From the NCBI GenBank assembly GCA_965603355.1, contig CBFDCQ010000003.1:20802-84801 (forward strand): 64,000 nt of DNA, written 5' to 3'. The notes beneath the pieces are model-generated. The model worked only from the letters and a program-made list of their open reading frames with translations, searched no databases and was not told the origin of the DNA. The stretch's first letter is position 1; each line of letters opens with the position of its first letter. The stretch comes from an uncultured bacterium (lineage in GTDB: Bacteria; Hydrogenedentota; CAZGCA01; CBFDCQ01). Below are positions 12,308-63,159 of the stretch, piece after piece. Made by a program: the position numbers and the translations under genes.

Positions 12308-12613
12308 AATGAGTACCTCACGCGCCTTAACGCGTGCATCTGGAATTGTCCCCGGTCACCCGTGCGCAGTAATATAGCACAAAGCACTTCCGCGCGCAAG
12401 GCTGCGAGTTGCGGAGCATGTTGGGTCTATCCTGTCCTGTCTGCGTGAGGGCTTATCTCAATGTGCAGCGGTGGCCTGTCGAGGCGGAGCCTGCTCTTGG
12501 GAGAGCGCGGCGAGATCGTCGTTTACCATCACGACAGCGGTCTCCCCGCTCTTAGCGTAGTAACCCTTTCTGATGGCGACCTGACGGAACTTGAATCTCC
12601 TATAGATGCTGAG
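11835..12613. repeat. segmental duplication, copy A (kinase 5' part + intergenic region + rimI 3' remnant; ybjQ deleted)
   Basis: Aligns to 15567-16676. The offset is 3732 nt for 11835-~12440 (428 nt perfect, then roughly 88% by eye) and 4062 nt for 12468-12613 (rimI-like). Copy A therefore lacks 330 nt present in copy B. Confidence 0.85.
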
Positions 12614-46403: not shown

Positions 46404-47357
46404 TCAGGACGGCAGCTCCAGGCTGCCCGTGAGTTCGGCCACGGTCTTGATGCCGTTTCGCTCCATGTACTTCGTAATTCCATCAACGATATCGATGCTT
46501 GCTCTCGGGTCGGCGAAACTTGCGCTGCCGACGGCGACCGCTGCAGCGCCCGCGATGAGAAATTCGAGCGCGTCACTCTCGTAACGTATGCCGCCCATAC
46601 CTATAACAGGTATGCTGACAGCCCGCGCGACTTCCCAAACCATGCGAACGGCAATCGGGCGGATGGCGGGCCCGCTCAGGCCGCCCGTCACACCACCCAG
46701 AAACGGTTGTCGCCTCTCCACATCCACGACCAACCCGGGTATCGTGTTAATCAGCGAAACCGCGTCGGCACCCGCGTTTTCCGCCGCGACCGCTATCTCC
46801 GCAATCGATGTTACCGCCGGGGACAGTTTCACAACGAGCGGTAGTCCGGTGACTTTGCGCACGGCCTCAGTGTACCGGCTCGTTGCCTGAGCGTCTTGAG
46901 CCACCAGGTCGGTTACGGATTTGCCTCGTCCTGATACGTTCGGGCAAGAAAGATTCATCTCTATCCCCGAAATCTGCGGATGTCCGGAAAGCCTGCCTGC
47001 CAGCTCCACGAACTCTTCAGCAGTTTCCCCATGGATATTGGCGATTATCGGTGAATCGTATTGGGCCAGAAGCGGCAGCCTTTCCTTGAGCAGCGCGTCA
47101 ACGCCCACGTTCTGCAATCCGATCGAGTTCAACATGCCTGACGGCGTCTCTGCTATGCGCGGCGGCGGGTTTCCCGCGCGCGGTTCAAGGGTGATAGTCT
47201 TGAGCACTATGCCGCCGAGACGTTGCAGGTCGAGCACTTGTGCGAACTCGATTCCGTATCCAAACGTGCCGGATGCGACAAGAACGGGATTCTTCAACTG
47301 CATTCCGGCGATTGAAACCGTCGTGTCGGGCACGAGCGACTTCTCCCTTTCCGTCAC
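46404..47357 (-). CDS. pyrD: dihydroorotate dehydrogenase, class 1B catalytic subunit
   Basis: 317 aa with NPVLVASGTFGYG, EMNLSCPN and GMGGI motifs. Overlaps the pyrK stop by 4 nt. Confidence 0.9.
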   Translation of the reverse strand: MTEREKSLVPDTTVSIAGMQLKNPVLVASGTFGYGIEFAQVLDLQRLGGIVLKTITLEPRAGNPPPRIAETPSGMLNSIGLQNVGVDALLKERLPLLAQYDSPIIANIHGETAEEFVELAGRLSGHPQISGIEMNLSCPNVSGRGKSVTDLVAQDAQATSRYTEAVRKVTGLPLVVKLSPAVTSIAEIAVAAENAGADAVSLINTIPGLVVDVERRQPFLGGVTGGLSGPAIRPIAVRMVWEVARAVSIPVIGMGGIRYESDALEFLIAGAAAVAVGSASFADPRASIDIVDGITKYMERNGIKTVAELTGSLELPS

Positions 47358-48196
47358 GAATCGTCCCCCCAGGATACGCGTCGACTGTCAATGACAGGGC
47401 CCTGCATGCATACTCGGAAGTAATGCGGTTCCTTCCCTGTCTCCGCGCTCGCTCCACGCACCGCGCACGCCATGCACGCACCGAGCCCACACCCCATTCT
47501 TGCCTCTAGCGACAGCTGGCAAGGGGCGTTCGCCCGTTCCGCCAGACGGGCCACCGCAGCAAGCATTTGGTGCGGGCCACAGGCGTAAACCGCCGCTCTA
47601 TGTTCGCTGACTTCCGTCTTCACGGCGGCGGAAAGCGATTCTCCAAGTCCCAGGGTCACAAATCCTTTCGCCCCAAGCGAGCCATCTTCCGTGAACACTG
47701 CGAGATCCACATTGCGTGTATCAAAATCCTGCATACAAGGGAGTTCCGTGGAGCTCTTTGCGCCATAAAACACTTTCGGTCTGATTCCGGACAGCACGAA
47801 CGCATCCGCCAGAGCGACCATGGGGGCCACTCCGGTGCCCCCGGCCACTATGAGGTGCTCCGTCGCACCTTCCGCTATCTTGAACCCTCGTCCCAGCGGT
47901 CCGAGAACACCCAGAGTATCGCCGGCGCATACTCTGCTCAACAACGCGGTTCCCCGGCCCACCACCTTGTAGAGCAGCTCGAAGCCGGTTGGATTTCCCT
48001 CCGCATCGCGGATTAACCGATACAGGCTCATTGGGCGACGCAGAAGCGGATCGGTTCCCTCGCCGCCCACCTCCAGCATGAAGAACTGGCCCGCGACGCT
48101 TTCCGCGGCAAAGTGAGGCGCTTCGAAACCGATCTGATACCACGACGGCGCACACTGGGCGTGTTTGATAACCCTAAGCTTTTCGGAGAACATCAT
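47354..48196 (-). CDS. pyrK: dihydroorotate dehydrogenase electron-transfer subunit (FAD / 2Fe-2S)
   Basis: RRPMSL FAD motif and C-terminal cluster CGLGACMACAV. Start moved to ATG 48196. Confidence 0.85.
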   Translation of the reverse strand: MMFSEKLRVIKHAQCAPSWYQIGFEAPHFAAESVAGQFFMLEVGGEGTDPLLRRPMSLYRLIRDAEGNPTGFELLYKVVGRGTALLSRVCAGDTLGVLGPLGRGFKIAEGATEHLIVAGGTGVAPMVALADAFVLSGIRPKVFYGAKSSTELPCMQDFDTRNVDLAVFTEDGSLGAKGFVTLGLGESLSAAVKTEVSEHRAAVYACGPHQMLAAVARLAERANAPCQLSLEARMGCGLGACMACAVRGASAETGKEPHYFRVCMQGPVIDSRRVSWGDDS

Positions 48197-48567
48197 GTGA
48201 ATCGACCCCCTGCCGGTTCCAAATCTGAAGACGGCGTCATCGCCACACGTCCTCCAACCGTCATTGGAACCGTCCACACATTAATACATTACCGTTACAA
48301 GAGTCAATAGGCAAGCTCGCGCGATGTCGGACTCTCAGTACATACCTGTTACGTTTGCGCCATGGCAGCTTCTTGCGGCCTCACCACGAGCCTGATATAC
48401 TCAGCGTCGAGCGAGAGGTGGGCGTTGATGATAGCCCAAGGCTTCCTGACAGCGAGGCTGATGTCAAGGACTATAAGATCCTCCTACACCGTTGATACTC
48501 CAGCCGTACGCGCTTCACTATCTGTTCTGTTCTCTCGTTCCGGAGCAGGTTGGAAGGGCGGTTACCC

Positions 48568-48597
48568 TTGACAATAAGGAGGAGATTCTGGTACACT
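48568..48597 (+). promoter_or_regulatory. candidate promoter of the wzm-wzt locus (TTGACA-N18-TACACT)
   Basis: Located in the 473-nt pyrK/wzm divergent gap, about 70 nt upstream of the wzm ATG. Confidence 0.45.
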
Positions 48598-48669
48598 GAA
48601 CGGCAATGCGTTTATTCGTAAAATCAGGTACTTAATGAAGTTACAAGCGTACTTGAGGGTTCTGATCGA

Positions 48670-49494
48670 ATGGCTTTAGGTGGAATTCGCGGTTTTGTGA
48701 CCGATATGGTTCAGCATCGCGAGCTGTTAGTGAGCCTCGCCTCAAAGGAGTTCAAGATCAGGTACAAGGTGGCTGCGCTGGGCTTCCTGTGGACGGTTCT
48801 GAACCCGTTGTTACTAATGTTGGTTCTGAGCTTCGTACTGAAGAAAATTGGCCTTCGCTGGGAGGAATCCGTCGATAAGGACTTGATTCCGGTGTGGCTG
48901 CTTTGTGCGCTAATCCCGTGGAACTTCATGGCGCACTCCTTGTCGCGGAGCCCGGGCGTGCTTGTGGACAATGCAGGGTTGATTCAAAAGGTTTACTTTC
49001 CGCGCGAGATCATCCCTCTGGCAAGGGTGATGGCGAACTCTCTAAACTTTCTCATAGCACTTGTGGTGTTACTATGTTTCCTACTCGCATTTGGGGTGAA
49101 ACCAAGCATATGGTGGATAATCGGTGCGCCCTTGATAATCATCGGCGAAATCCTGTTCGTTGTAGGTATGTGTCTTGCCGTCTCCAGTCTCAACGTGTTT
49201 TATCGGGACGTGGCGTTCGTTGTGGAAGTGCTCCTGCTGGTTTGGTGGTGGGGAACGCCGATCTTTTACCCTCACGATCAGGTGATCCAACCCGAGGTAT
49301 CGGAGCTTGTCTACCGCATATATATGGCGAACCCGATGGCGGCCACCGTCGTTTCGATGCGGCAGATCTTCCTCGAGAGACGGTTCCCGGATGCCTCTCT
49401 TGTGCTCACGTTGTTCGCGGCAGCGTTCCTATCGCTCATTATCGGCACGGTGATTTTCCGTCGTCGACGGGGCGTATTGGCGGATTTTGTATAG
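48670..49494 (+). CDS. wzm: ABC-2-type polysaccharide/polyol-phosphate export permease (Wzm/TagG-like)
   Basis: 274 aa, six predicted TM helices, N-terminal ELLVSLASKEFKIRYKVAALGFLWTVLNP motif typical of ABC-2 exporters. Confidence 0.85.
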   Translation: MALGGIRGFVTDMVQHRELLVSLASKEFKIRYKVAALGFLWTVLNPLLLMLVLSFVLKKIGLRWEESVDKDLIPVWLLCALIPWNFMAHSLSRSPGVLVDNAGLIQKVYFPREIIPLARVMANSLNFLIALVVLLCFLLAFGVKPSIWWIIGAPLIIIGEILFVVGMCLAVSSLNVFYRDVAFVVEVLLLVWWWGTPIFYPHDQVIQPEVSELVYRIYMANPMAATVVSMRQIFLERRFPDASLVLTLFAAAFLSLIIGTVIFRRRRGVLADFV

Positions 49495-49496
49495 AG

Positions 49497-52283
49497 ATGA
49501 GTGTGCTTTCCATAAGAGACGTTGGCAAAAAGTACAGGCTGCGGCGAGAGACACGCATGTTCACTAACGAGCTTGTGCGTCGCCTGCTGAGAAGACGTCA
49601 AACCGAGGAGTTCTGGGCGCTAAGGGACATAACATTCGACGTCGAAGCCGGAGAATCGTTGGGCATTATAGGGCCAAACGGTTCGGGCAAGAGCACTTTA
49701 CTGAGGATCATCGCAGGAGTCACGGAATGTACAGAAGGGGAGGTGTCGGTACAGGGTCGAGTCGCCTCGCTGCTGGAACTTGGCACCGGATTTCATCCGT
49801 ATCTGACGGGCCGCGAGAACGTTTACCTGAACGGCGCGATATTGGGGATAGAGAAGGAAGAGATAGAACGTAATTTCGGCAAAATCGAGGAGTTCGCTGG
49901 AATTGGACGATTCATAGACGTTCCTGTAAAAGACTACTCTTCGGGAATGTACGTGCGGCTGGCATTCGCCGTGGCAATTAATTCCGACCCGGACATCTTC
50001 CTCGTTGACGAGGTTCTCGCGGTGGGGGATGAGGAGTTCCAGCAGAGGTGTCGCGCAAAGATACGCGAGTTGCAGGGCTCCGGCAAGACCATCGTGTTCG
50101 TGTCGCACGACCTTAACATAGTGAACGAGCTGTGCGACAGAGTCATCCTCCTGCGTGAAGGAAGGATAATGGAGAAGGGGTCGGCTGAAAGAACGATAAA
50201 CTTCTACCTGCATACCATCGGCAAGCAAGAGGGAATTGCGTTCCTGAAAGCAGGTTCGCTCGAACTCATTTTCAATAACGGCAAGATCGCGCTTTTCAGT
50301 GACGGCCAGATGTTAACCAGAGCACACGGAGGGCACACCTCGGTCTTGTCGCGCGGGATTTGGTACGAATCCACGGGGGCAAACTGGCACGTCGAGACGT
50401 GCACCGACACGGAACTGGTAGCCACCGGCACGTACACGAGAATACCGGTCAGCCAGACGTGGCGGATCAAGCTTGAGGCACCGTCGACGGTGCTGTGGAA
50501 TGTGGAAATAGAGGCTGAGGCCGGTGCAGAAGTCAATGGGCGGCATGCGTCTCTGGTACTATCGACCTCGTATACGAAGTGGTTCACCGAGCTCAGAGAA
50601 AGCGAGTTTCCCAGAATAGATCCCGGCGATACGCGGTGGACACCGGTGTTTCAGCGTGACGAACACGTTAAGATCATAGGAGCGACGGCCGGCGAGGACG
50701 AAGCTGGACTTCCGTCTGTGTGCTGGGAGACGGATGACCGCGCACCGCTGAGTTCGCTCTTGGTGCTGAACAGCGACTACACCCTCAACTCCAGGGTGCT
50801 GCAGACCGTTGAATTACGTCCCGGCGACGTGCGTGAACTCTCGGCCGGCAAGGAACTCTTTGTCTCGGCCAGGATCGACCTCGGACAACCGTTGGAGCTC
50901 ATCCGAAAGCGCCTCAAGGAAGCCCGTCGCGAACGAAGGGCTATCCTGAAAAACGGCAACCTCAGTTTGGCGTTCGAAGAAGGCAGTTTCCGCCTGTTCC
51001 TGGACGACAGGGAAATAACAGGAGGGCATGGGGCGTACAGTTCCATCTTGTCTCGGGGAATGTGGATCGATTCGTCGACAGCGCAATGGCGTCTTGAGTC
51101 ACATTCGGACACTGAGCTGGTCGCAATAGGAATATCCAGAAGGATACCGATCTGCCAGATATGGCGGATCAAGTTGGAAAGCCCTACAGCCATTCGCTGG
51201 TCCGTCGAGATGGAGGTCCAAGATGATACCGTCGTGTCGCGGCGACATATCTCACTGATACTGCCCACCGAGTACACGAGATGGTTCACGGAAAAGGAGT
51301 CGGGCAAGTTCCCGACAATTCATCCTGATGAGACCGAATGGATACATTTGTCGCACCGGGACGAGCAGGTCAAGTTCATGGTGGCAGCACCTGAAGAGGT
51401 GGGGCCCGATTCGCCGGTGGTCTCGGTTGAGGCGGAGATGTTGGCGCCGAAGGTGGCTTTTCACGTGATAAACAGCAGCTATGCGCTCAATTCGAGAGTG
51501 TTACAGGTGCTGGAGCTGCACCCGGGAGATCACGAAGAACTTCTTCCCGGGAGGCAGTCGTTCGCTTCGGTAATGATACACCTGGACAGGTCCGAGGAGC
51601 TTGTCCAAGAACGGCTCACGGAAGTGTACCGAGGCACAATGGTGCGGGCAGGCAACCTCAATGCCGTGCTTGACAGGGGGAAGATCCGCCTTCTGTGGCG
51701 AGACAACGAGGTAACCCGAGACCGTTGCGTTTTCTTTTCAATCCGCAGCGGCGATCTGTGGGACGAGTCAGTGCAGGGGCGCTGGCGTGTTGAGCAAGTT
51801 TCTCCGAACGAATTGAGGGCGGCAGGAACGATGTTGAGGCTGCCCGTGGTCCAGGAATGGACGCTGAGAACGTGTGAGGACGGTACGCTCGAGTGGAAAA
51901 TCTGTCTCGACGTCAGAGAGAGGTTGCATGTTGAGGAGCTGGTCGTTAACGCGATGCTCTCGCCGGAATATGACGCTTGGGCAACCGCCCACGAATCAGG
52001 GGCTTTCCCGCCGTTCGCGCCGAGGATTGGTGAGTGGACGCACTTGGCCAAGGTGCTCAAGCCGGGCGCCTTTGCAGAGGCCGGATGCACAGATGTCGCC
52101 GGGAACCGCCCGCGCACGGTTCGCATCTCGTTCGAGGCGCCGTGGATAGCCATGGCAGCCAATGCCGGCAGCCTGGAAACGGCACGTGTGATACAGGGTG
52201 TGAAACAGTATCCGGAAGGCGCCGGTGTACTGGAGCCGGGACGGCATGAGGTCTTTTCTGCTAAGATACTATGTAATGAGTAG
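49497..52283 (+). CDS. wzt: Wzt/TagH-like ABC exporter ATPase with three tandem C-terminal modules (928 aa)
   Basis: Walker A GPNGSGKST, signature YSSGM, Walker B IFLVDE, then three collinear ~215-235-aa repeats. ATG 49497 lies 2 nt after the wzm stop. The upstream part of the 1129-aa track ORF overlaps wzm in another frame and is rejected. Confidence 0.85.
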   Translation: MSVLSIRDVGKKYRLRRETRMFTNELVRRLLRRRQTEEFWALRDITFDVEAGESLGIIGPNGSGKSTLLRIIAGVTECTEGEVSVQGRVASLLELGTGFHPYLTGRENVYLNGAILGIEKEEIERNFGKIEEFAGIGRFIDVPVKDYSSGMYVRLAFAVAINSDPDIFLVDEVLAVGDEEFQQRCRAKIRELQGSGKTIVFVSHDLNIVNELCDRVILLREGRIMEKGSAERTINFYLHTIGKQEGIAFLKAGSLELIFNNGKIALFSDGQMLTRAHGGHTSVLSRGIWYESTGANWHVETCTDTELVATGTYTRIPVSQTWRIKLEAPSTVLWNVEIEAEAGAEVNGRHASLVLSTSYTKWFTELRESEFPRIDPGDTRWTPVFQRDEHVKIIGATAGEDEAGLPSVCWETDDRAPLSSLLVLNSDYTLNSRVLQTVELRPGDVRELSAGKELFVSARIDLGQPLELIRKRLKEARRERRAILKNGNLSLAFEEGSFRLFLDDREITGGHGAYSSILSRGMWIDSSTAQWRLESHSDTELVAIGISRRIPICQIWRIKLESPTAIRWSVEMEVQDDTVVSRRHISLILPTEYTRWFTEKESGKFPTIHPDETEWIHLSHRDEQVKFMVAAPEEVGPDSPVVSVEAEMLAPKVAFHVINSSYALNSRVLQVLELHPGDHEELLPGRQSFASVMIHLDRSEELVQERLTEVYRGTMVRAGNLNAVLDRGKIRLLWRDNEVTRDRCVFFSIRSGDLWDESVQGRWRVEQVSPNELRAAGTMLRLPVVQEWTLRTCEDGTLEWKICLDVRERLHVEELVVNAMLSPEYDAWATAHESGAFPPFAPRIGEWTHLAKVLKPGAFAEAGCTDVAGNRPRTVRISFEAPWIAMAANAGSLETARVIQGVKQYPEGAGVLEPGRHEVFSAKILCNE

Positions 52284-54333: not shown

Positions 54334-55599
54334 ATGACGAAGATAGCGATAGTTGACCTGATGTTCTCCTGGCCGCCTCACGGCGGCGGTTGTCTGGACC
54401 TGAAGGAGACAGCCACGGGGCTGACACGGCTGGGGTACGACGTGCGGCTCTTTTCGGCAAACTGCTCGTGGGCGTGGCAGCGCGGTACGGTCGACGAAGA
54501 ACTGCTCGAGTTCCCGGTGGAGAAAGTGGAGCTTACCTACCGAACCTTCAACAGGTTTTCGGTTCCAAAACGTTTCCGCAAAGCGGTCGACAGTTACTCG
54601 CCTGATATCGTGTTTTTCGGCGACAGCTACTTTCTCAAACCTTTTCTCATTCGCGCCTTCGCGGACTACCCCGTCATCGCGCGGTTCTACACGTACGAGA
54701 TGTTCTGCCCGCGGTACTACATGCTGTTTCGTGACGGGAGAATATGTGACACGCATTATCTCAAGACTCCTGTGTACTGTATGCGGTGCGCGATGGAGGC
54801 TATGCGCGATCCAATACTGCGATGGCGCCACGACGTGTGGAGTCACGAGTTTGTCGCGGCCCTGGCCTTCCTTCCGGGATACTACAAGCTCGTTCGGTCC
54901 GCCATAGACGCGTGCGATTCTCTGATCGTGTACAACAGGATGACGCGCGACCTGTTCACGCCTTATCACGACAGCGTACATGTCGTTCCGGGCGGCGTCG
55001 ACGTCGAGCGGTTCCGCTACTCAGAACCGCCTCGGAAAGGCGGTCAGGACACGAAGTACATATTCATGAGCGGGAGGGTCGCGGACGAGAGAAAGGGGCT
55101 TCACGTCTTGCGCCAAGCGGCGAACATACTTCGCCAAGAGCGCCACGATTTCAAGGTTTGGGTGACTCACGACGACGTCACGATGAACGACGAGACAGTC
55201 GAGGCGATCGGGTGGCACGCGCACGACGAGCTTGCAGATCTTAACTCCCGTGCCGACATATGTGTGGCGCCGTCGCTCTGGGCGGAACCGTTCGGGATGG
55301 TTGCCGTTGAGGCGATGGCTTGCGGCAGACCTATTGTGGCATCCAGGGTCGGTGGCTTAGCGGATAGTGTTGTGGACGGTGAAACGGGATTCCTCGTTCC
55401 GCCGGACGATCCTGTAGCCCTGGCGGACAAGTTACGCGTGCTGCTCAACGACTACGAGCTGAGGCTCCAGATGGGAAAACGTGGCAGAGCGCGTGTGGAG
55501 CAGAATTTTCACTGGCCGAAGATCGTCGGGAAACATATTCCGCCAGTACTGGACGAGGTTCTCGCGAAGCGCAGACAGGTTAGGGGTGGTTCCTCATGA
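54334..55599 (+). CDS. GT-B glycosyltransferase, family 4-like
   Basis: 421 aa with C-terminal EX7E region EPFGMVAVEAMACGRPIVASRVGGLADSVVDGETGFLV. Confidence 0.85.
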   Translation: MTKIAIVDLMFSWPPHGGGCLDLKETATGLTRLGYDVRLFSANCSWAWQRGTVDEELLEFPVEKVELTYRTFNRFSVPKRFRKAVDSYSPDIVFFGDSYFLKPFLIRAFADYPVIARFYTYEMFCPRYYMLFRDGRICDTHYLKTPVYCMRCAMEAMRDPILRWRHDVWSHEFVAALAFLPGYYKLVRSAIDACDSLIVYNRMTRDLFTPYHDSVHVVPGGVDVERFRYSEPPRKGGQDTKYIFMSGRVADERKGLHVLRQAANILRQERHDFKVWVTHDDVTMNDETVEAIGWHAHDELADLNSRADICVAPSLWAEPFGMVAVEAMACGRPIVASRVGGLADSVVDGETGFLVPPDDPVALADKLRVLLNDYELRLQMGKRGRARVEQNFHWPKIVGKHIPPVLDEVLAKRRQVRGGSS

Positions 55600-56108
55600 G
55601 ACAGCCGCCGAGAAGAATGCAGGACATAGACGCGGAGCGCGTGACGCTGTTCTGCTCGATAGGGACACATTTCGAGGCTGCTGTGCACGAGCTCAAACAG
55701 CAGTTTCCCCGGGCAAAGCTCACCGCTGTGGCGCCGCCGTCCATTGCGGAACCGTTGGCCGAACCGGGGCTTCTCGATAATGTGATTGAAATGACGAAAA
55801 ACAAGCTTCGCGTTGTGAAGGACTTCCCGGAGTGTGTGCGGCTTCTCAGAGCGATTCGCGAAAAAAAAAGCGACCTTATCGTAACGATGTACGACAGCAG
55901 GGCGCTGAATCTGCTCCAATCGTTGAGCGGGGCCCGCAACCATGCGGTATTCGACACTCGGCACGTTTTATGCCCAGTCAGAGTTGGCAGATTATACCTC
56001 TTGACGCTGGTGTTCGGGGGCGCCGGCAGACTCCTCCTGGGAGGTATAATGTACGCCCTAATCCAGGGTACGCTTACGGCGTGGACGGTTTTTCAAAAGC
56101 GGCGATGA
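55596..56108 (+). CDS. hypothetical protein resembling the N-terminal half of a GT9-type glycosyltransferase, with C-terminal TM helix
   Basis: ATGA overlap with the GT4 stop. The pattern VTLFCSIGTHFEAAVHELKQQFPRAKLTAV...LRAIREKKSDLIVTMYDSRALNLLQSLSGAR is reminiscent of heptosyltransferase-family N-domains. Weak, by eye only. Confidence 0.4.
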   Translation: MRQPPRRMQDIDAERVTLFCSIGTHFEAAVHELKQQFPRAKLTAVAPPSIAEPLAEPGLLDNVIEMTKNKLRVVKDFPECVRLLRAIREKKSDLIVTMYDSRALNLLQSLSGARNHAVFDTRHVLCPVRVGRLYLLTLVFGGAGRLLLGGIMYALIQGTLTAWTVFQKRR

Positions 56109-56882: not shown

Positions 56883-57203
56883 TTCTATCAGTCCCTCCAA
56901 CAACTCTCCTCCAATTCGCTACATCTCAACAGAACTCACACGGATAATTATAATTCCGGTTTGCAGCCCTGTCAACTGATTCGTCGACTCACCTCTTAGA
57001 ACGCATATTCGCGGCAAACGGGTTACACCGTGCGGTTGACACCGCGCGCCGCTTCTGATATCGTTTGATCCGGGCAATTTGCAGGACTTTGAATATGAAA
57101 GGTGCGGATCACGCCGTAATCACTCCTTGAGGTCTGTCGTGAAGAAACGTAAACTCGCTGTCCAGCCCGCACATCCGACTTTCTGAGGGAACCGAGGTGG
57201 GAG

Positions 57204-57773
57204 ATGGTGCAAAAGAAAACGCCAACGTCGCCCGAAACGCGCCCGACGAAACGTACGGTCGGGTACGTCGTTTTGCTCGTAGTGTGCTATTTTCTCCTCT
57301 ACCTGTTTGCGTGGCGGGGCATGCGGTTCTTCCTCATTCCATCGACCTCGATGGAGCGGACATTGATGCAATATGATTACATCGTCACACTGAACTACGG
57401 TCATCCGGCGCGCGCGCCGAGGAGGCTTGATATTATCGTATTCATGGATCCCGAGGATCCCGAACAGTACGATGTCAAACGCGTCATAGGGTTGCCGGGT
57501 GACGAGGTCGCAATACTACCCGGGGCGGTTTTCGTCAACCGCGAGGTTCTGTACGAACCTTACGTCAAAGAGCCTCCCGTGTACAAGTACGACCCGGAGG
57601 TTGTCCCGGAGGACCATTATTTCGTGCTGGGAGACAACAGGAATTTCTCGAGCGACAGCAGTCTATGGCGCCGTTCCGTGCCAAGGTCCGACATAGTGGG
57701 TCGCGCGGTGTTCATTTACGGTCCGATAAGCAGGATGGGACGCATACGCAGGCCTCCGGAGCAGGTTGAATGA
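57204..57773 (+). CDS. lepB: signal peptidase I
   Basis: 189 aa with catalytic Ser box PSTSMERTL, KRVIGLPGD and GDNRNFSSDS. Confidence 0.85.
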   Translation: MVQKKTPTSPETRPTKRTVGYVVLLVVCYFLLYLFAWRGMRFFLIPSTSMERTLMQYDYIVTLNYGHPARAPRRLDIIVFMDPEDPEQYDVKRVIGLPGDEVAILPGAVFVNREVLYEPYVKEPPVYKYDPEVVPEDHYFVLGDNRNFSSDSSLWRRSVPRSDIVGRAVFIYGPISRMGRIRRPPEQVE

Positions 57774-58636
57774 CAAGACCTCATTACTATCAGGAAGATC
57801 ACCGTTCGGGCTGGCAGTTCCGGGTCGGGATAACCCCTGGAGTGCGGCTGCTCCTGCTTGCGAACGCGATCGCCTTTGTGGCCGTGCTGTTGCTGCAGAG
57901 CATCCTGATGGTGGCCGCCAAAGGGTCCGGAATCTCGCTTGATTTCATACTGGGATTGAGTCGGCCGGGCGTTTTCCAGAAGTTCATGATTTGGCAGCCG
58001 CTCACATACCTGTTCGTTCACGGCGGCCTACTGCATCTCGTCTGGAACATGTTCGTTCTATGGATGTTCGGCGGCGATGTGGAGCGGACGTGGGGAACGC
58101 GGCGGTTCCTCTTCTTCTACTTTCTTACCGGGGTAGGTGCAGGTCTGTTCATCCTGCTGCTCAGCGGACCTCAAACGGTTACCATCGGCGCGTCCGGTGC
58201 AGTCCTTGGCGTGCTCGTGGCGTTCGCGATGCTTTTCCCGAACAGGCCCATCACGTTGCTGCTGTTCTTCGTGTTTCCTGTAACTCTCAAAGCGAAACAT
58301 CTCGCAATCGGCATTGCCGCGATCACGTTTCTTTCGCTGATTAGCCGCTCAGAGGGCGGTAATATATCGCATCTGGGGCATTTCGGCGGTATGGTCCTAG
58401 GATATCTGTACGTGAGGTACAGCGATACGACGCGGTCGCGATTCGACAATTTCGCGGGGAATATGGGCAGCGCTTCACGCGTCAGGACGCCGCGTGGCCA
58501 GAAACGGCAACCAGCGGACCGTTATTCACCCGAAAAAGTGGACGCCATACTGGACAAGATCGCCGCGCAAGGCATCGACTCGCTTACCGAGGAGGAAAGA
58601 GAGGTGCTCAAAAATGCCTCTTCCAGGATGCGATGA
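57770..58636 (+). CDS. rhomboid-family intramembrane serine protease with cytoplasmic C-terminal tail
   Basis: HLVWNMFVLWMFG, catalytic GASGAVLGVL and HFGGMVLGYL motifs. ATGA overlap with lepB. Confidence 0.85.
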   Translation: MTRPHYYQEDHRSGWQFRVGITPGVRLLLLANAIAFVAVLLLQSILMVAAKGSGISLDFILGLSRPGVFQKFMIWQPLTYLFVHGGLLHLVWNMFVLWMFGGDVERTWGTRRFLFFYFLTGVGAGLFILLLSGPQTVTIGASGAVLGVLVAFAMLFPNRPITLLLFFVFPVTLKAKHLAIGIAAITFLSLISRSEGGNISHLGHFGGMVLGYLYVRYSDTTRSRFDNFAGNMGSASRVRTPRGQKRQPADRYSPEKVDAILDKIAAQGIDSLTEEEREVLKNASSRMR

Positions 58637-58651
58637 GAAGGAGACAGGATA

Positions 58652-59239
58652 GTGAGCGAGGAGAGGTACTTCGTTCATCCATCGTCGCACGTCGACAGTG
58701 GCGCTTCGATCGGCGACGACACGCACGTGTGGCACTTCTGTCACGTGATGTCGGGCGCCAGGATCGGCCGCAACTGCGAGATCGGACAGAACGTATTCGT
58801 GGACCGGAACGTTGTCATAGGGGATAACGTCAAGATCCAGAATAACGTTTCTCTGTACGAAGGGGTGACGCTGGAGGACAGCGTTTTCGTCGCGACATCG
58901 ACCGTGTTCACAAACGAGTTGTCACCGCGCGCCGCGTTTCCTCGTCACAGAGAGGGCGGTTTCCAAAAGACGCTGGTGAAACGTGGCGCCACAATCGGCG
59001 CTAACGCGACAGTATTGTGCGGGACAACCGTCGGCGTGTACGCGTTCATAGGCGCCGGCGCCGTCCTTACACGCGACGCACCCGATCATGGTCTGATGAT
59101 GGGTGTGCCGGCGCGCGTCTCAGGGTGGGCGTGCGCGTGCGGCAGAAAGATTGTGTTCAACGAGCTGAATAAGGCGCGATGCGGCGCTTGCCGCAGAGAC
59201 TACGCCCGCGTCGCGGGCGAGGTCCGGGAGAAGAAGTAG
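58652..59239 (+). CDS. left-handed beta-helix (hexapeptide) sugar N-acetyltransferase, WbpD/WlbB-like
   Basis: 195 aa. FVHPSSHVDSGASIGDDTHVWHFCHVMSGARIG hexapeptide repeats and a Cys-rich C-terminus. GTG start with AAGGAG upstream. Confidence 0.8.
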   Translation: MSEERYFVHPSSHVDSGASIGDDTHVWHFCHVMSGARIGRNCEIGQNVFVDRNVVIGDNVKIQNNVSLYEGVTLEDSVFVATSTVFTNELSPRAAFPRHREGGFQKTLVKRGATIGANATVLCGTTVGVYAFIGAGAVLTRDAPDHGLMMGVPARVSGWACACGRKIVFNELNKARCGACRRDYARVAGEVREKK

Positions 59240-59301
59240 CCTTTCACCAGCCCGCTGCCTGACCTGGAGGGGCACGGGTAGACAGAAATGTCTGCCCCAC
59301 C
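59216..59301 (+). repeat. direct repeat, left copy (last 24 nt of the acetyltransferase CDS + 37 nt + REP hairpin)
   Basis: 51 nt are identical to 60739-60789, followed by a diverged REP hairpin (GGGTAGACAGAAATGTCTGCCCCACC, 59276-59301). Confidence 0.85.
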
Positions 59302-59317
59302 ATGAGACCGACCATTG

Positions 59318-60124
59318 CTACGGCTGCCCTTTCTGTGCAATTGTCCAGCAACCAGAGGATCGGTCGAATTCCAGAACGCGGTCACGCATGTACTGAAAAA
59401 GGAAAGCCTTATCGTACAACGATTCGTTCAATGGAGTAGTGACGTCTTCCCAACCGTTCAATTCCTCAGGGGATATTGTTCTTGAGGCTTGTGAGAGCAG
59501 TTCTCCGCTCACGATTAGCAGCCACAGCTCGTCCACATGCTCTGTCTTATAGTTTTTCGTCTTACGCACCTTCTCCTGGACGCGGGCTGGAAGGTCGCGC
59601 TCGGATGGACCAGCGAAGGCTACTCCAAGATTGTGGTTCCAAGTGGCGTCAAAACCCTTGTTCACAAGCTTGAGGGTCGTAAGATAGCGTGCTGATACAG
59701 GGTAGGCTGCTGAGTGCTCCGCGAGAGAGAGCACCCTCTTGTCTCCTCGTTCAGGACGCTGTGCCACGGAGAGGTTGACCAAGTCGTGGACGAATATCGC
59801 TCGCTCTTGAGGTCGGGGAAGTCGGAAATCCCTGAATTTCAGGTAGCCGTGCACGCCGCAAAGCCCTCTGTGCCCCCGCACCGCCTTCATCAGTTTCTCT
59901 AGGAGCCTGTTCAAGTCCTCTTCCATCGCGCGACGGGGGCGGCCGTTAGCGTCTGTGGCGTCCGAGTGGAACATGGTCGCTTCCAAGCCGATGCGACGCC
60001 CCTCCAGTGTCACGATAAAATCCGGACACTCGTCCTGCTCGATGGCCTCCGCACTCCACATCATTGCGTTCAAGAACTTATCTAGATAGAACCTCTCCTC
60101 TCTCTTTTGTCTCTCCCTTCCCAT
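59318..60124 (-). CDS. hypothetical protein (268 aa), possible PD-(D/E)xK-like nuclease fold
   Basis: Only evidence is an N-terminal pattern E..ECPDFIVTLEGRRIGLEATMF and a later hydrophobic strand DELWLLIVSG. Lies 15 nt downstream of the RAYT gene on the same strand. Confidence 0.5.
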   Translation of the reverse strand: MGRERQKREERFYLDKFLNAMMWSAEAIEQDECPDFIVTLEGRRIGLEATMFHSDATDANGRPRRAMEEDLNRLLEKLMKAVRGHRGLCGVHGYLKFRDFRLPRPQERAIFVHDLVNLSVAQRPERGDKRVLSLAEHSAAYPVSARYLTTLKLVNKGFDATWNHNLGVAFAGPSERDLPARVQEKVRKTKNYKTEHVDELWLLIVSGELLSQASRTISPEELNGWEDVTTPLNESLYDKAFLFQYMRDRVLEFDRSSGCWTIAQKGQP

Positions 60125-60139
60125 AGCTATGGCCCCCCG

Positions 60140-60694
60140 CTACTCTCCCCGGTTGGTGGGGCAGACATTCCTGTCTGCCACCTCTTTCATATACCAACCG
60201 TCGTACTGTAATGGGTCGTCAATCAACCCATACTTAAGTGGATTGTGCAACATGTATTGGAGTTTCTCCACGAACTCATCATTGTCGCGCATGATCCTGT
60301 CGTAGTACTCATCCTGCCAGACATGACCTTTAGTCCCTCTCTTCTCATTGAGCTTCCTGGCTGTGACACCCTTAATACCTTTCATAACCTGCGTCAGCGA
60401 TCTTGCAGGACCCGGGTACAGCAACATGTGAACATGGTCCGGCATGACCTGAACCGCGCGCAGCTCGTAGAACCGAGGGTCCCCGGAGCGAATGTGCTGC
60501 AGTACTAGTCGTCGCTCCTCCGCTGAGAGCTTGCCTGACTGCAGCCTGAAAGTCACAAAATAGGTCGCTCCAGGAAAGCGCCAGTGTGGGAGCCTGCGGC
60601 GCGTGATTCTTAGTCGGGGATCAGGCAAGGTTCTCTCGCTCCTCGTAGTCCTGACCTTGCGGTCAGGGACAGACAGGAATGTCTGCCCCACCAT
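60140..60694 (-). CDS. REP-associated tyrosine transposase (RAYT, IS200/IS605 Y1 HUH family)
   Basis: RRRLPHWRFPGATYFVTFRL, HUH motif PDHVHMLL, and catalytic Tyr region VWQDEYYDRIMRD..HNPLKYGL. Flanked by inverted REPs. Confidence 0.85.
   Translation of the reverse strand: MVGQTFLSVPDRKVRTTRSERTLPDPRLRITRRRLPHWRFPGATYFVTFRLQSGKLSAEERRLVLQHIRSGDPRFYELRAVQVMPDHVHMLLYPGPARSLTQVMKGIKGVTARKLNEKRGTKGHVWQDEYYDRIMRDNDEFVEKLQYMLHNPLKYGLIDDPLQYDGWYMKEVADRNVCPTNRGE
60155..60182. repeat. REP hairpin at the RAYT 3' end
   Basis: GGTGGGGCAGACATTCCTGTCTGCCACC. It is the reverse complement of the copy at 60666-60692. Confidence 0.8.
60666..60692. repeat. REP hairpin at the RAYT 5' end
   Basis: GGGACAGACAGGAATGTCTGCCCCACC. 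The first codons of the RAYT ORF (MVGQTFLSV) are encoded by it. Confidence 0.8.
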
Positions 60695-60738
60695 CAGATA
60701 TTATCATCTTAGTGCGTGATGATCCAACTTGCGTGGCC

Positions 60739-60824
60739 GGCGAGGTCCGGGAGAAGAAGTAGCCTTTCACCAGCCCGCTGCCTGACCTGAAGCGGCACGG
60801 GCAGACAGGAATGTCCACCCCACT
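60739..60824 (+). repeat. direct repeat, right copy (relic acetyltransferase 3' end + degenerate REP)
   Basis: Retains codons for AGEVREKK-stop plus downstream sequence. The REP is degraded (GGGCAGACAGGAATGTCCACCCCAC). Confidence 0.85.
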
Positions 60825-60972
60825 GTCTAATCTCCTCGGATATGATACCAGGAGCAAAACTGATGGGACAGACCTTCCCTCGTGAGCGAGGTCCGGGAAA
60901 AAGAGTGATTGTCTTTCCCCGCGCCCGTTTCAAAGACCTTGTCGTTCTCAAGCTGCAGTAGTTGGGGACGCC

Positions 60973-61479
60973 TTACTTGCGCTGGCCGCCCCCGCCGAGG
61001 CCTTTTGCCTGTGGTCGTGCCTGCTTGCCTTTGCCGCCCCCGCCGAGGCCTTTTGCCTGTGGTCGCGCCTGCTTGCCTTTGCCGCCGCCTTTCGCCGGTG
61101 CTCCCAGTTGCTTGCCCTTACCGCGACCGGGTTGTTGTCTCGCGAGCTGTTTGGGCGGGAATTTCTTCATGTAGCGCGTATGGTTGCGCCAGGGTCTGTT
61201 GTTGCCAGGCCTTATGACCACGTGTCTGTGTCCGGAGGTCAATCTAGCAGGACGCCTGTTGACGACAACCCACTGGCCGCCCCGGAAAACAGTGTATGTG
61301 CCGAGATCGCGGCACCAGTAGATCTCGACGTCCGGGTAGTAGTGGTAAACGTGTTGCACGCGGCGGCCGCGAGCCCGCGCGTGCGGTGGCGGACCCGGCC
61401 GGGGGTAGTGGTGATGTACCGTCTCGCATCCCGTAAGAACCGCGATAAGCAGCACTGAAATCAGGTATCTCATTGTCAT
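60973..61479 (-). CDS. hypothetical lipoprotein with His/Tyr/Pro-rich core and Gly/Lys-rich repeat tail
   Basis: MTMRYLISVLLIAVLTGC lipobox. The C-terminus has GGGKGKQARPQAKGLG x2 plus a degenerate copy. Confidence 0.5.
   Translation of the reverse strand: MTMRYLISVLLIAVLTGCETVHHHYPRPGPPPHARARGRRVQHVYHYYPDVEIYWCRDLGTYTVFRGGQWVVVNRRPARLTSGHRHVVIRPGNNRPWRNHTRYMKKFPPKQLARQQPGRGKGKQLGAPAKGGGKGKQARPQAKGLGGGGKGKQARPQAKGLGGGGQRK
60985..61128. repeat. 48-bp tandem repeat (2 near-perfect copies + 1 degenerate) inside the lipoprotein gene
   Basis: GCCGCCCCCGCCGAGGCCTTTTGCCTGTGGTCGyGCCTGCTTGCCTTT occurs at 60985 and 61033. The third unit is diverged. Confidence 0.8.
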
Positions 61480-61601
61480 CCTCCTTATGGACTTACGCGC
61501 TGCACCACCAAAGTCGATCCTTCAACCACACACCTAAATTATACCACCACTATATAGATCATGCAAAATGCAGGATAGGTTCCCTGCCGGCATATGTGTT
61601 A

Positions 61602-62003
61602 TCAGACGACAGCCGGCTCTTCCGATGGGGGCGGGCTGGAAGGGCGAAACAAGCGGAATACGGCCTTTGGAGCGTCCCAGAGGACCGCTTTCAGAGCCCG
61701 GAAAGGTGTTCCGAGGACCATCCCGCCCCAGTACCAGCCGCGTCTGGGCGCTGTCAGCCAACTCTCGGCCACCCGCGCCGGATTATCGCGGAAAAGAATC
61801 AGGCTGGCGGTTCCGTAGACCAGGCTGATGGGAGTGAGCGCCACCGCACCCACCGCGGCGCCCAAGTAGGTCGGGACCGCTACGAGCGGGCCGTGCGCCT
61901 CGGCAAGAGCCTCACGGTACTCGCTCATTGCCGTGTCCGCGCGGGCCGTGTACGCCGTCGTTGCCAGCAACACAAAGATGGCCACACAGGTTCTTTTCCT
62001 CAT
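61602..62003 (-). CDS. hypothetical secreted/membrane protein (133 aa)
   Basis: Signal peptide MRKRTCVAIFVLLATTAYTARA and one or two hydrophobic segments. ATGA overlap with the lpxK stop. Confidence 0.4.
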   Translation of the reverse strand: MRKRTCVAIFVLLATTAYTARADTAMSEYREALAEAHGPLVAVPTYLGAAVGAVALTPISLVYGTASLILFRDNPARVAESWLTAPRRGWYWGGMVLGTPFRALKAVLWDAPKAVFRLFRPSSPPPSEEPAVV

Positions 62004-63154
62004 GCTTTCTCCTCCGTGTGATCGTCGCCAACGATTCTGATCTCCACCGCTACCGCGTATATCGGGCGCCGCGTGGAGATGTTATGAGGCATTCGCGCTA
62101 CATCCTTTTCCGTCGTTACGATCGCGTCAGCATCGCAGTCGGCGGCATATTCGTCTATCGTGGCCAGATCGGCCGGCGTGTAACGATAATGGTCCGGGAA
62201 CCCTTTGAACCGCACGGTGGACACGCCGAGAGAGCTCAAAGTCCGCTCGAAAAAGCCCGGATCGGCTATGCCGCAGAAGGCCACGACCTTCTTCTCCTTG
62301 AGATACGACACGGGTGTCATCTCGCCAGTTGGAAAGGATTTAAGATGAATCGCGACGTAATTCGTCCGCGCAATGGCCGCGTGCGGCGATAGCGCTCGCA
62401 GCCTACTCTCAAGCGCCGCAAGCCCGGCATCGCTATCCCCGGCGACCCCTTCCGGCAGAATTTTAGTAAGAAGTATTCGGCTGGCGCGTCTGAGCGACGT
62501 CGGAGGTTCGCGCAGCATCCCCCGAGGCAGTAAGTGTCCGTTGCCAAACGGGTTAGTAGCGTCAATGGCGACAATGTCCTCGTCCCGATGCAGTCGCAGG
62601 TGCTGAAACGCGTCGTCGAGAACTATCGCCTCGGCGCCGAACTGTTTCACGGCAAACGCGCACGCGGCAAACCGATCCTTTGAGACGATCACGGCGGCAT
62701 CGGGTACCCTTTTCGCCAGCACGTAAGGCTCATCTCCCGCCTCCTCCGCGCTAAGAAAGATCTGCCCGGAACCATCGCTCACAACCCGCACGTCTGCTGG
62801 AGGGCGAATCGCCTCCGGCAGATTCGACTGCGTGACGGCGCCCCGGACCTTTCCATACCCTCTGCTGACTATGGCGACCTTTTTGCCTTTTTGCAGCCAG
62901 GATCTGGCGTACATCTCGGCCAACGGTGTCTTGCCGGAGCCGCCGACCGTGATGTTGCCGACGCTGACGACATGGGCCGCGACACGTTTTCTCAAGCCCG
63001 GGACGCGCAAGTACAGAAAACGCCTCAGGCTGACTGCGAGGCCATACGCCCACGAGCACAGAAGCAGAAAGAGGCGGGCCGGCGCCCAGATCGCGCCGCC
63101 CGTATCAGCTTTCTCCATCATTTCGCGCGCATCGTGGATAACGGTGAGGTTCAT
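62000..63154 (-). CDS. lpxK: tetraacyldisaccharide 4'-kinase
   Basis: 384 aa with N-terminal TM helix and P-loop VGNITVGGSGKTP. Confidence 0.9.
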   Translation of the reverse strand: MNLTVIHDAREMMEKADTGGAIWAPARLFLLLCSWAYGLAVSLRRFLYLRVPGLRKRVAAHVVSVGNITVGGSGKTPLAEMYARSWLQKGKKVAIVSRGYGKVRGAVTQSNLPEAIRPPADVRVVSDGSGQIFLSAEEAGDEPYVLAKRVPDAAVIVSKDRFAACAFAVKQFGAEAIVLDDAFQHLRLHRDEDIVAIDATNPFGNGHLLPRGMLREPPTSLRRASRILLTKILPEGVAGDSDAGLAALESRLRALSPHAAIARTNYVAIHLKSFPTGEMTPVSYLKEKKVVAFCGIADPGFFERTLSSLGVSTVRFKGFPDHYRYTPADLATIDEYAADCDADAIVTTEKDVARMPHNISTRRPIYAVAVEIRIVGDDHTEEKA

Positions 63155-63159
63155 GTAGG

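Follow-up and report, generated by a model that had tools for sequence, protein, structure and literature searches.

Three tandem modules of predicted beta-supersandwich fold and putative glycan-binding role on a Wzt-type ABC transporter ATPase of an uncultured bacterium

The wzm-wzt cassette and its three repeats

The stretch of DNA that was analyzed (the window, 64 kb) contains a cassette of five genes, in which a permease gene is followed by a gene for an ABC ATPase with a long C-terminal extension. The features are the following:

48670..49494, + strand: wzm, ABC-2 type permease of 274 aa (Pfam ABC2_membrane, E 5e-15), with its stop 2 nt before wzt
49497..52283, + strand: wzt, 928 aa, stop codon counted in the coordinates; translation identical to that of the called gene P0001
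49497..50234, + strand: nucleotide-binding domain (NBD) of wzt, aa 1-246, including the hinge helix (aa 230-242)
50235..50939, + strand: module 1, aa 247-481, NBD-proximal 'first' type
50940..51638, + strand: module 2, aa 482-714, 'middle' type
51639..52280, + strand: module 3, aa 715-928, C-terminal 'last' type, without a trailing helix
52335..54263, + strand: B12-binding radical SAM enzyme of 642 aa (Pfam B12-binding and Radical_SAM), 51 nt downstream of wzt
54334..55599, + strand: GT4 glycosyltransferase of 421 aa (Pfam Glycos_transf_1, E 1e-30), conserved in the related loci L003 and L028
55596..56108, + strand: orf170, 170 aa, the final gene of the cassette, overlapping the GT4 stop

The list of open reading frames has wzt as 48894..52283; its true start is most plausibly the ATG at 49497, two bases past the wzm stop, which yields the 928 aa also found in the gene call of the public assemblies. 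The first-pass annotation, which was made on the letters of the window, had let the ATPase run to about aa 246 with about 680 aa following it, in agreement with the measured 246 and 682 aa; the boundaries it had drawn for three collinear repeats are exactly those listed above, and all the peptide blocks it had aligned were recovered in the translation. Four residues separate the hinge helix from module 1, and in modules 1 and 2 the predicted beta-supersandwich (see below) is followed by a linker helix (aa 466-478, nt 50892-50930, and aa 700-714, nt 51594-51638, respectively). The model of the full-length protein reached a pTM of 0.46 and does not predict the arrangement between the domains.

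The NBD matched Pfam ABC_tran (E 2e-20) and contains the Walker A, signature, Walker B and H-loop motifs (GPNGSGKST, YSSGM, IFLVDE and SHD, respectively). The top sequence match in the PDB was Wzt of Aquifex aeolicus (8DKU/7K2T, E 3e-69 over aa 6-253), with further matches to TarH (8e-54), TagH (3e-51) and a mycobacterial Wzt (2e-41). The best NCBIfam scores were obtained with the TagH and galactan Wzt families, below their equivalog cut-offs, and Foldseek aligned the domain with the Wzt NBD 6M96 at a target-normalised TM-score of 0.87 and 46% identity. The three comparisons agree, and the Wzm permease gene adjoins; by sequence, the protein is a polysaccharide-export ABC ATPase of the Wzt/TagH type, as had been proposed. 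The permease itself showed a weak NCBIfam match to the galactan Wzm/RfbD permease, and wzm was found upstream of wzt in all related loci.

The wzm-wzt pair would form an ABC exporter with a polyprenol- or lipid-linked glycan as its putative substrate, given the adjacent GT4 gene and the WecA-like PF00953 gene in the related locus L025; the module loci also hold GT4, GT2, PMT_2 and fusions of GT2 with radical SAM. In the window cassette there is one GT4 gene and none for an initiating phosphoglycosyltransferase, and two module-bearing loci (L004 and L024) lack a glycosyltransferase within 8 kb; the substrate could thus be a small glycolipid or of another nature. The SPASM enzymes described below brought a RiPP or peptide to mind, but such a substrate is unlikely, because the NBD is of the Wzt/TagH type and the loci are rich in glycosyltransferases, including the GT2-radical SAM fusions. 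As to the remaining genes, the B12-radical SAM enzyme matched no NCBIfam family at cut-off; its gene is kept beside wzt in L003 and L028, and it has GT2-fused homologs (P0246 and P0247). The orf170 product is 54% identical to its counterpart in L003, was called as a 170-aa gene in both L003 and L028, and has as its sole family match a faint one to the N-terminal half of GT9 heptosyltransferases (E 1e-4). For both Wzt and the B12-radical SAM enzyme, the closest named relatives are found in Hydrogenedentota MAGs, and the presence of LpxK in the window indicates a diderm, LPS-making organism.

The similarity between the modules within wzt is far above chance: BLASTP aligned modules 1 and 2 without gaps over 231 aa at 46% identity (E 2e-72), as compared to 26% for modules 1 and 3 (E 9e-20) and 30% for modules 2 and 3 (E 1e-30), and 44 columns are invariant in the alignment of the three. 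The claim that modules 1 and 2 are closer to each other than to module 3 was thus borne out. At the DNA level the three copies have drifted apart, and neither a tandem repeat nor an in-register direct repeat was detected among them. The first-pass annotation had allowed for a single module in independent assemblies, but the identical three-module protein of 928 aa occurs on two other public records (ENA ERZ25073483 NODE_173 and GCA_964519495.1). Three modules are also kept in each of five orthologue clusters from other samples, at 51-80% identity over the module region, and there are two-module orthologues (P0009-P0012) that lack module 2. Given the diverged module DNA, the identical protein in other records and the three-module orthologues, a repeat mis-assembly is excluded within the limits of sequence evidence.

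Predicted fold and family of the modules

None of the Pfam and NCBIfam models matched the modules. The Wzt_C domain (PF14524) gave no match at E<=1 with the full protein, with its three modules or with 17 diverse modules; a PDB profile search with the modules returned a single chance-level match, and no sequence match to enzyme families was found. A word-indexed protein search with the 17-module alignment gave zero matches, and the family described below came from an exhaustive profile search. In contrast to the lack of a family match, the AF2 model of module 2 (m5aea6bdb0040; pLDDT 91.8, pTM 0.90) could be connected to known folds. It is a beta-supersandwich of around 215 aa and around 17 strands, for which Foldseek returned 51 matches at E<=1e-3. 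Among them was the N-domain of a GH36 enzyme (9AWT; query-normalised TM 0.70, E 9e-7), and the predicted model reached query-normalised TM-scores of 0.62-0.70 to 9AWT, 8X1B, 3BS6 and 5WZQ. Other matches included GH94 (5H3Z), domain 5 of GH2/LacZ, GH38, GH63 (YgjK), GH97, OpgG/OpgD and YidC P1. These relatives share the predicted fold, with query-normalised TM-scores of 0.55-0.70 and E-values as low as 7e-7, but are only 6-13% identical in sequence and have no Pfam family in common with the module. The modules are therefore predicted to adopt a galactose-mutarotase-like beta-supersandwich, as in the accessory domains of glycoside hydrolases, from which they differ in being presumably cytoplasmic, in tandem, and attached to an ABC ATPase, a radical SAM enzyme or a GT-C glycosyltransferase instead of a hydrolase. 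The first-pass annotation had raised the possibility that the modules belong to some widespread, unrelated domain whose role is known. This holds at the level of the fold and fails at the level of the family, and the match to glycoside hydrolase accessory domains supports a carbohydrate role rather than refuting it. The supersandwich fold is not always sugar-binding, YidC P1 being among the Foldseek matches.

The view that the modules are three copies of the known Wzt C-terminal domain did not survive, as there is no Wzt_C match and a beta-supersandwich of around 215 residues stands against a jelly roll of around 150. The Wzt carbohydrate-binding domain (CBD) was absent from the top 50 Foldseek matches of the module model, and upon superposition on full-length A. 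aeolicus Wzt (7K2T/8DKU) the NBD alone fitted, with an rmsd of 13-16 Å over longer alignments.

The exhaustive profile search recovered 564 cluster representatives at E<=1e-3 from many uncultured bacteria, with one to eight tandem copies of the module per protein. Among the top matches, one copy was found in 3 proteins, two in 31, three in 46, four in 11, five in 5 and eight in 1, and three was the commonest copy number in the best 150 of the 564 representatives. On sequence grounds the Wzt of the window is a typical member of its family, and the three copies are not the peculiarity they had been taken for. When the nearest neighbor of each module in another protein was determined, first modules paired with first modules in 83 of 92 cases, last with last in 90 of 92, and middle with middle in 70 of 84; module 1 of wzt likewise has the first modules of other proteins as its nearest relatives. 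Judged by these relationships, each of the three positions (first, middle and last) represents an old lineage of its own, which implies that no recent triplication took place in wzt. The last-type modules form the most conserved lineage and are always C-terminal in their protein; they also terminate the GT-C fusion proteins described below.

In an alignment of 270 modules, the conserved residues are Trp, Tyr and Phe together with Thr, Ser, Gln, Asn and Arg, and this set is present in all three wzt modules. No Asp, Glu or His was conserved in at least 60% of the 270 modules, and the catalytic His/Glu of true mutarotases were not encountered. Such an aromatic and polar set without Asp, Glu or His suits a binding site and speaks against catalysis. 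Conservation is markedly lower in the middle modules (Asn 0.54, Arg 0.58), and the capacity to bind may therefore not be common to all modules. Together the modules constitute a large family so far without annotation; a full-text literature search, to which the 2019 census of Wzt CBMs was outside scope, yielded no description of a multi-module Wzt or of a link between Wzt and radical SAM. The public annotation of the module-bearing proteins reads only 'ABC transporter ATP-binding protein'.

Fusions and gene neighborhood

The module was found fused to enzymes of two other kinds. One protein (P0042) combines an NBD, five modules and a radical SAM/SPASM enzyme in a single chain, four more combine modules with radical SAM/SPASM (P0052, P0151, P0153 and P0162), and P0081 has the layout B12-radical SAM, module, SPASM, module. 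In addition, seven proteins consist of a PMT_2 GT-C glycosyltransferase with two to four modules; a crude hydropathy count gave 8-12 TM helices for these and no clear charge bias. In the L001 locus, four modules are located on Wzt and one on the neighboring radical SAM enzyme of 1152 aa. The window itself holds no modules outside wzt, and the radical SAM enzyme and the GT4 of the cassette are devoid of them.

All 7 module-Wzt loci contain a radical SAM gene within 8 kb, as compared to 0 of 19 control loci of the NBD-only kind. The sample is small: three of the seven loci are closely related orthologues, and most of the controls come from Actinomycetota. In each of the seven loci the radical SAM gene lies directly or one gene downstream of wzt. 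The baseline was established with non-fusion queries and a CxxxCxxC filter; a scan of GTDB genomes with a single protein supplied one module-bearing relative (L004) and the NBD-only loci that served as controls.

Possible role of the modules

Characterized extended Wzt proteins carry one jelly-roll CBD, which in A. aeolicus Wzt comes after the hinge helix, and canonical CBDs dimerise by strand swapping (PMC9445017); the earlier statement that these proteins have a single C-terminal carbohydrate-binding domain is in agreement with this. The Wzt of the window resembles those of E. coli O9a, Raoultella/Klebsiella O12 and A. aeolicus (7K2T, 8DKU) in its NBD, which is 46-47% identical to that of A. 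aeolicus, in the adjacent Wzm permease, in the position of the extra domain right after the hinge helix, and in having genes for tailoring enzymes next to those of the transporter, which is also the case in capped O-antigen systems. It differs in having three predicted beta-supersandwich modules of around 220 aa, without a Wzt_C sequence match and from a family that varies between one and eight copies, instead of one jelly roll of around 150 aa. Moreover, the tailoring neighbor is a B12-radical SAM enzyme, where the extended Wzt systems have a class I methyltransferase/kinase or a Kdo transferase.

Considering the above, we lean towards the view that these are non-catalytic glycan-binding modules, linking radical SAM tailoring to export in a Wzt/TagH-type exporter of a lipid-linked glycan. 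The three modules would replace the canonical single CBD straight after the hinge helix and, in the cytoplasm, would most likely serve to bind the glycan substrate. The 'last' and 'first' modules may have fixed roles, for instance in the recognition of the ligand or cap and in the coupling to the NBD, and the middle modules could provide extra binding sites or reach; avidity or multi-site binding by the tandem modules is plausible. Because the module is fused to radical SAM and GT-C enzymes and a radical SAM gene lies near wzt, it probably represents a shared glycan-recognition element that gathers tailoring enzymes and exporter on one polymer. In the window, the neighboring GT4 would make this polymer and the B12-radical SAM enzyme of the cassette would modify it. 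In short, we infer glycan binding, recognition of the radical SAM modification and its coupling to export. Of the options offered by the first-pass annotation (avidity, recognition of several termini, or a different docking domain), the last comes closest.

It is rather unlikely that the modules are protein-protein assembly domains, with the copies on Wzt, radical SAM and GT-C enzymes binding each other or a common partner without contacting glycan. Three kinds of enzyme of one locus carry the same module, as illustrated by L001, and supersandwich domains serve oligomerisation in many glycoside hydrolases, with YidC P1 as another structural match; the invariably C-terminal position of the last-type modules also recalls the strand-swapped dimerisation of canonical CBDs. 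Yet the polar-plus-aromatic signature fits a ligand site better than an interface, and since the window cassette has modules on Wzt alone, heterotypic docking between modules cannot be their role here. Less probable still is a spacer or molecular ruler, in which the number of beads would set the distance from the membrane (and thereby chain length or partner reach) with the terminal module alone being functional. The range of copies in otherwise similar proteins, the helix that ends each internal module, and a constraint that is lowest in middle and highest in last modules would fit such a device, for which the WbdD coiled-coil ruler, reportedly described by Mann et al. in 2019 for capped O-antigen systems, offers a precedent by analogy. 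What argues against it is that the middle lineages are conserved and orthologous (70 of 84 middle-to-middle), that module 2 of wzt keeps every signature residue, and that a folded domain of 215 residues with conserved surface-type residues is needless for a pure spacer. A catalytic role, in which the modules would act on the glycan like a mutarotase, epimerase or hydrolase, was rejected as very improbable: true enzymes do exist in this fold and the top matches are parts of glycoside hydrolases and phosphorylases, but it is their accessory, not their catalytic, domains that were matched, and there is neither conservation of Asp, Glu or His at the 60% level nor a match to an enzyme family. Finally, a triplication of the canonical CBD, or an assembly artefact, is refuted for practical purposes, for in spite of the shared position past the hinge helix 0 of 17 modules match Wzt_C, size and fold differ, only the NBD superposes on A. 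aeolicus Wzt, the module lineages are ancient, the DNA copies have diverged, and the protein recurs in other assembly records and in orthologues.

The glycan-binding reading can be extended, more tentatively, to a new recognition domain, widespread among uncultured diderm phyla such as Hydrogenedentota and Omnitrophota, that in one to eight copies might recruit radical SAM (B12, SPASM) tailoring enzymes, GT-C enzymes and Wzm/Wzt to a lipid-linked glycan, with export possibly gated by radical SAM chemistry. To our knowledge, the export-gating caps described so far are methyl, phosphate or Kdo. ABC-dependent glycan export has been worked out in a few proteobacterial systems and that of Aquifex, in which a single jelly-roll CBD reads the terminal cap; the large unannotated set of Wzt proteins recovered here uses a different domain in one to eight copies, with position-specific types and a tie to radical SAM enzymes. 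At minimum, the module family merits a Pfam/InterPro entry. Should the modules bind glycan, they would form a new carbohydrate-binding family and would point to radical SAM-modified surface polysaccharides in candidate phyla, and the five-gene cassette (wzm, wzt, B12-radical SAM, GT4 and orf170) could be rebuilt in a model host to study how multivalent substrate recognition controls an ABC exporter.

Two other systems bear comparison. RiPP recognition elements are substrate-recruitment domains on radical SAM and other tailoring enzymes of one pathway; by analogy, the module too is a small non-catalytic domain, located on different enzymes (including radical SAM/SPASM) and on the exporter of one locus, but the fold of the RiPP elements is unrelated and they bind a leader peptide instead of the presumed glycan. 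The Wzt proteins of L030 and L031 (ABC_tran with ASD1_dom/Alpha-L-AF_C) differ in that their single composite extension is of another domain family, unmatched by the module HMM and without tandem repeats; like the module-bearing proteins, they belong to a Wzm/Wzt pair encoded beside B12-radical SAM, radical SAM-SPASM and GT4 enzymes, and have an extension otherwise known from glycoside hydrolases.

Three C-terminal modules in Wzt

The open reading frame at 48894..52283 has an ATG in frame at position 49497, just two bases past the stop of the upstream gene, and translation from this ATG gives a Wzt of 928 amino acids that matches the publicly called product (P0001) exactly. An ABC-2 permease is encoded directly upstream. 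The ATPase part is:

Residues 1-246 of Wzt: ABC nucleotide-binding domain (NBD)

Pfam recovered ABC_tran in this protein, and the top NCBIfam families were TagH and galactan Wzt, both under their equivalog cut-offs. The closest solved relatives are the Wzt of A. aeolicus (E 3e-69, aa 6-253), TarH, TagH and the mycobacterial Wzt. The nearest named relatives of both Wzt and the adjoining radical-SAM (rSAM) protein are found in Hydrogenedentota MAGs; the presence of LpxK at 62000-63154 indicates that the organism makes lipid A.

The 682 residues past the NBD divide into three collinear units, at the coordinates proposed in the first-pass annotation, and all peptide blocks quoted there were recovered in the translation. 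The proposed closeness of modules 1 and 2 was borne out as well: they share 46% identity over 231 residues with zero gaps (E 2e-72), versus 26% for modules 1 and 3 (E 9e-20) and 30% for modules 2 and 3 (E 1e-30). When all three are aligned together, 44 columns are invariant.

A repeat mis-assembly, which the same annotation had wished to see excluded, is contradicted by several observations. The DNA of the three modules has diverged between copies, Tandem Repeats Finder reported no array in the module region and no in-register direct repeat between modules was found, so that there is nothing here to confuse an assembler. Moreover, the identical 928-aa protein occurs in the same gene context in ENA ERZ25073483 NODE_173 and GCA_964519495.1 (either of which may be the window's own source), and the orthologues P0002-P0006 from other samples, surveyed for copy number, keep three modules at 51-80% identity across the module region.

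Predicted fold of the modules

Canonical Wzt carbohydrate-binding domains (CBDs) are jelly-rolls that dimerise by strand swapping and bind the glycan's terminal cap (PMC9445017). The modules occupy the equivalent position in the protein but constitute a different domain. Neither Wzt_C nor any other Pfam/NCBIfam model matched the three window modules or 17 diverse family modules, even at E<=1, and the module profile gave a single, chance-level match among PDB sequences. AlphaFold2, supplied with a 17-sequence module alignment, yielded a confident model of module 2 (pLDDT 91.8, pTM 0.90) with about 17 predicted beta-strands followed by a C-terminal helix. In a Foldseek search against the PDB this model matched beta-supersandwich (galactose-mutarotase-like) accessory domains, with 51 matches at E<=1e-3. 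Among these were the GH36 galactosaminidase 9AWT (query-normalised TM 0.70), GH94, LacZ domain 5, GH38, GH63, GH97, OpgG/D and also YidC P1, and a Wzt CBD was absent from the best 50. Given the lack of a sequence match and the different predicted fold, the modules can be ruled out as canonical Wzt_C domains. The likeness to extended Wzt proteins with a substrate-reading domain lies in the mode of working; with the glycoside-hydrolase supersandwich domains the modules have the predicted fold in common, though they fit no described sequence family.

The full-length model (pLDDT 82.7, pTM 0.46), in which the mutual arrangement of the domains is not fixed, contains the NBD, a hinge helix (230-242) and three supersandwich domains with linker helices at 466-478 and 700-714. 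It can be superposed on solved NBDs of Wzt proteins, with 46-47% sequence identity.

Module family and positional types

With a three-module profile, HMMER was run exhaustively against 1.84 billion representatives and recovered 564 proteins at E<=1e-3 (448 at E<=1e-10), with 1 to 8 matched stretches each; the named members belong to Omnitrophota and Hydrogenedentota MAGs. The best 150, ranked by total score, which favours many copies, were re-scanned with an improved HMM, and the NBD-bearing proteins among them had 1 (n=3), 2 (31), 3 (46), 4 (11), 5 (5) or 8 (1) copies. Three modules are thus a common state and the window Wzt is a typical family member. The largest member found, P0065 (2244 aa), has an NBD and about eight modules, and gaps of ~250 aa between some of these may conceal more degenerate copies. 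The JGI label 'uncharacterized protein (DUF952 family)' of P0007, a 428-aa two-module fragment, looks like a mis-annotation, as no module matched any Pfam family.

Module type follows position in the chain: for 83 of 92 first, 90 of 92 last and 70 of 84 middle modules, the closest module of any other protein was of the same type. Compared with P0009-P0012, orthologues that have two modules, the window Wzt has one additional middle module, related to module 1. Last modules show almost no variation (0.95-0.98) in the family signature, which consists of Thr, Trp, Ser, Trp, Gln, Trp, Tyr, Trp, Phe, Pro, Asn and Arg; its conservation is strong in first modules and weaker in middle ones (Asn 0.54, Arg 0.58). 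All three window modules keep it.

Several family members are fusions. Modules lie C-terminal to PMT_2-type GT-C glycosyltransferases in 7 proteins, the final module being of the Wzt 'last' type, and N-terminal to radical-SAM/SPASM enzymes in P0052, P0151, P0153 and P0162. In P0081 they are interleaved with B12-rSAM and SPASM rSAM domains, and P0042 combines an NBD, five modules and rSAM/SPASM in one chain.

Radical-SAM neighbourhood and proposed role

The window wzt is followed after 51 nt by a gene for a B12-binding radical-SAM enzyme, and then by a GT4 gene and a conserved ORF; the same five-gene cassette, starting with wzm, is present in L003 and L028. The cassette end and the more distant module-Wzt loci are as follows:

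55596-56108, + strand: 170-aa ORF, function unassigned, overlaps the GT4 stop; 54% identical in L003
56058-56903, - strand: conserved, convergent 281-aa ORF; 37% identical in L003
L001 (Omnitrophota): PMT_2, wzm, 4-module wzt, module-bearing B12-rSAM/SPASM, B12-rSAM, GT4, GT2, rSAM-SPASM
L004: wzm, 2-module wzt, rSAM
L024: wzm, wzt, methyltransferase, rSAM, rSAM
L025: WecA-like gene, wzm, 3-module wzt, GT2-rSAM fusion, five more rSAM genes

The 170-aa ORF faintly matches a GT9 heptosyltransferase over the N-terminal half of the latter, and the 281-aa ORF matched no family. Using non-fusion rSAM queries, a CxxxCxxC filter and the fetched flanks of each locus, we found rSAM genes near wzt in 7/7 module-Wzt loci versus 0/19 NBD-only control loci. 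Although the loci compared are few and unevenly spread over the phylogeny, the independent fusions make the link to rSAM convincing. We found no description of multi-module Wzt or of a Wzt/radical-SAM association in the literature; a 2019 census of Wzt CBMs may mention them.

Fold, conservation and context best support a reading of the modules as non-catalytic domains that bind glycan. GT4 would build a lipid-linked glycan, B12-rSAM would tailor it and the modules would tether it to the exporter. As rSAM and GT-C enzymes elsewhere bear the same domain, the module would be the common means by which these proteins recognise one polymer. Within Wzt, the first module would contact the NBD hinge region, as the CBD of A. 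aeolicus does, the last one, with its high conservation, would hold the key ligand or dimerisation function, and middle modules would supply extra valency or reach. The rivals are a protein-protein scaffold and a spacer or ruler; a catalytic role is disfavoured, as no conserved Asp, Glu or His was found in the modules. The substrate may instead be a small glycolipid, given that glycosyltransferases are lacking near the wzt of L004 and L024 and that the window cassette has a single GT4.

L025 4613-14268 is an unusually rSAM-dense polysaccharide cluster, with six rSAM genes in a row and, in addition, genes for a TPR protein and a GDSL esterase, beside the WecA-like gene, wzm and three-module wzt. 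GT2 glycosyltransferases are fused to a radical-SAM domain in P0246, P0247 (L030 10001-12568) and L025 4613-6523, which ties this rSAM clade directly to glycan synthesis; the rSAM part is B12-binding in P0246 and P0247, and P0247 is 45% identical to the window rSAM across 83% of its length. In two loci of rSAM relatives (L030 2347-4722, - strand; L031 13030-15357, + strand), Wzt proteins of 775-791 aa carry ASD1_dom/Alpha-L-AF_C, known from GH51 arabinofuranosidases, in place of supersandwich modules, and homologues of the window B12-rSAM adjoin these Wzm/Wzt pairs, as do rSAM-SPASM and GT4 genes. It seems that accessory domains of glycoside hydrolases were taken up by rSAM-linked Wzt systems on more than one occasion.

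In L003 (3170-8837) and L028 (1063-4087), the orthologous loci closest to that of the window, genes for sulfate activation and related enzymes precede the cassette. They encode APS kinase, two enzymes of the Phosphodiest family and a PHP protein, with ATP sulfurylase in L003 as well, and may point to a product that is sulfated or phosphodiester-modified. The corresponding site of the window holds pyrD/pyrK on the opposite strand (46404-48277). Here the cassette is a compact island amid housekeeping genes (1-48300 and 57200-64000: ilvD, ilvB-like, pckG, trpE, folC/Mur-ligase-like, glmU-like, argC/argJ/argB, exbB, hisH/hisB, mgtE, pyrE-like, pyrD/pyrK, lepB, rhomboid and lpxK), and no initiating phosphoglycosyltransferase or further glycan genes were seen near it. 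The GC content is 0.53 in 48001-50000 and about 0.57-0.60 on either side. Elsewhere in the window lies:

12458-13858, - strand: 466-aa BNR/sialidase-like repeat protein

It adjoins a 514-aa ORF (13950-15494; no Pfam match) and a GAF histidine kinase (11093-12307).
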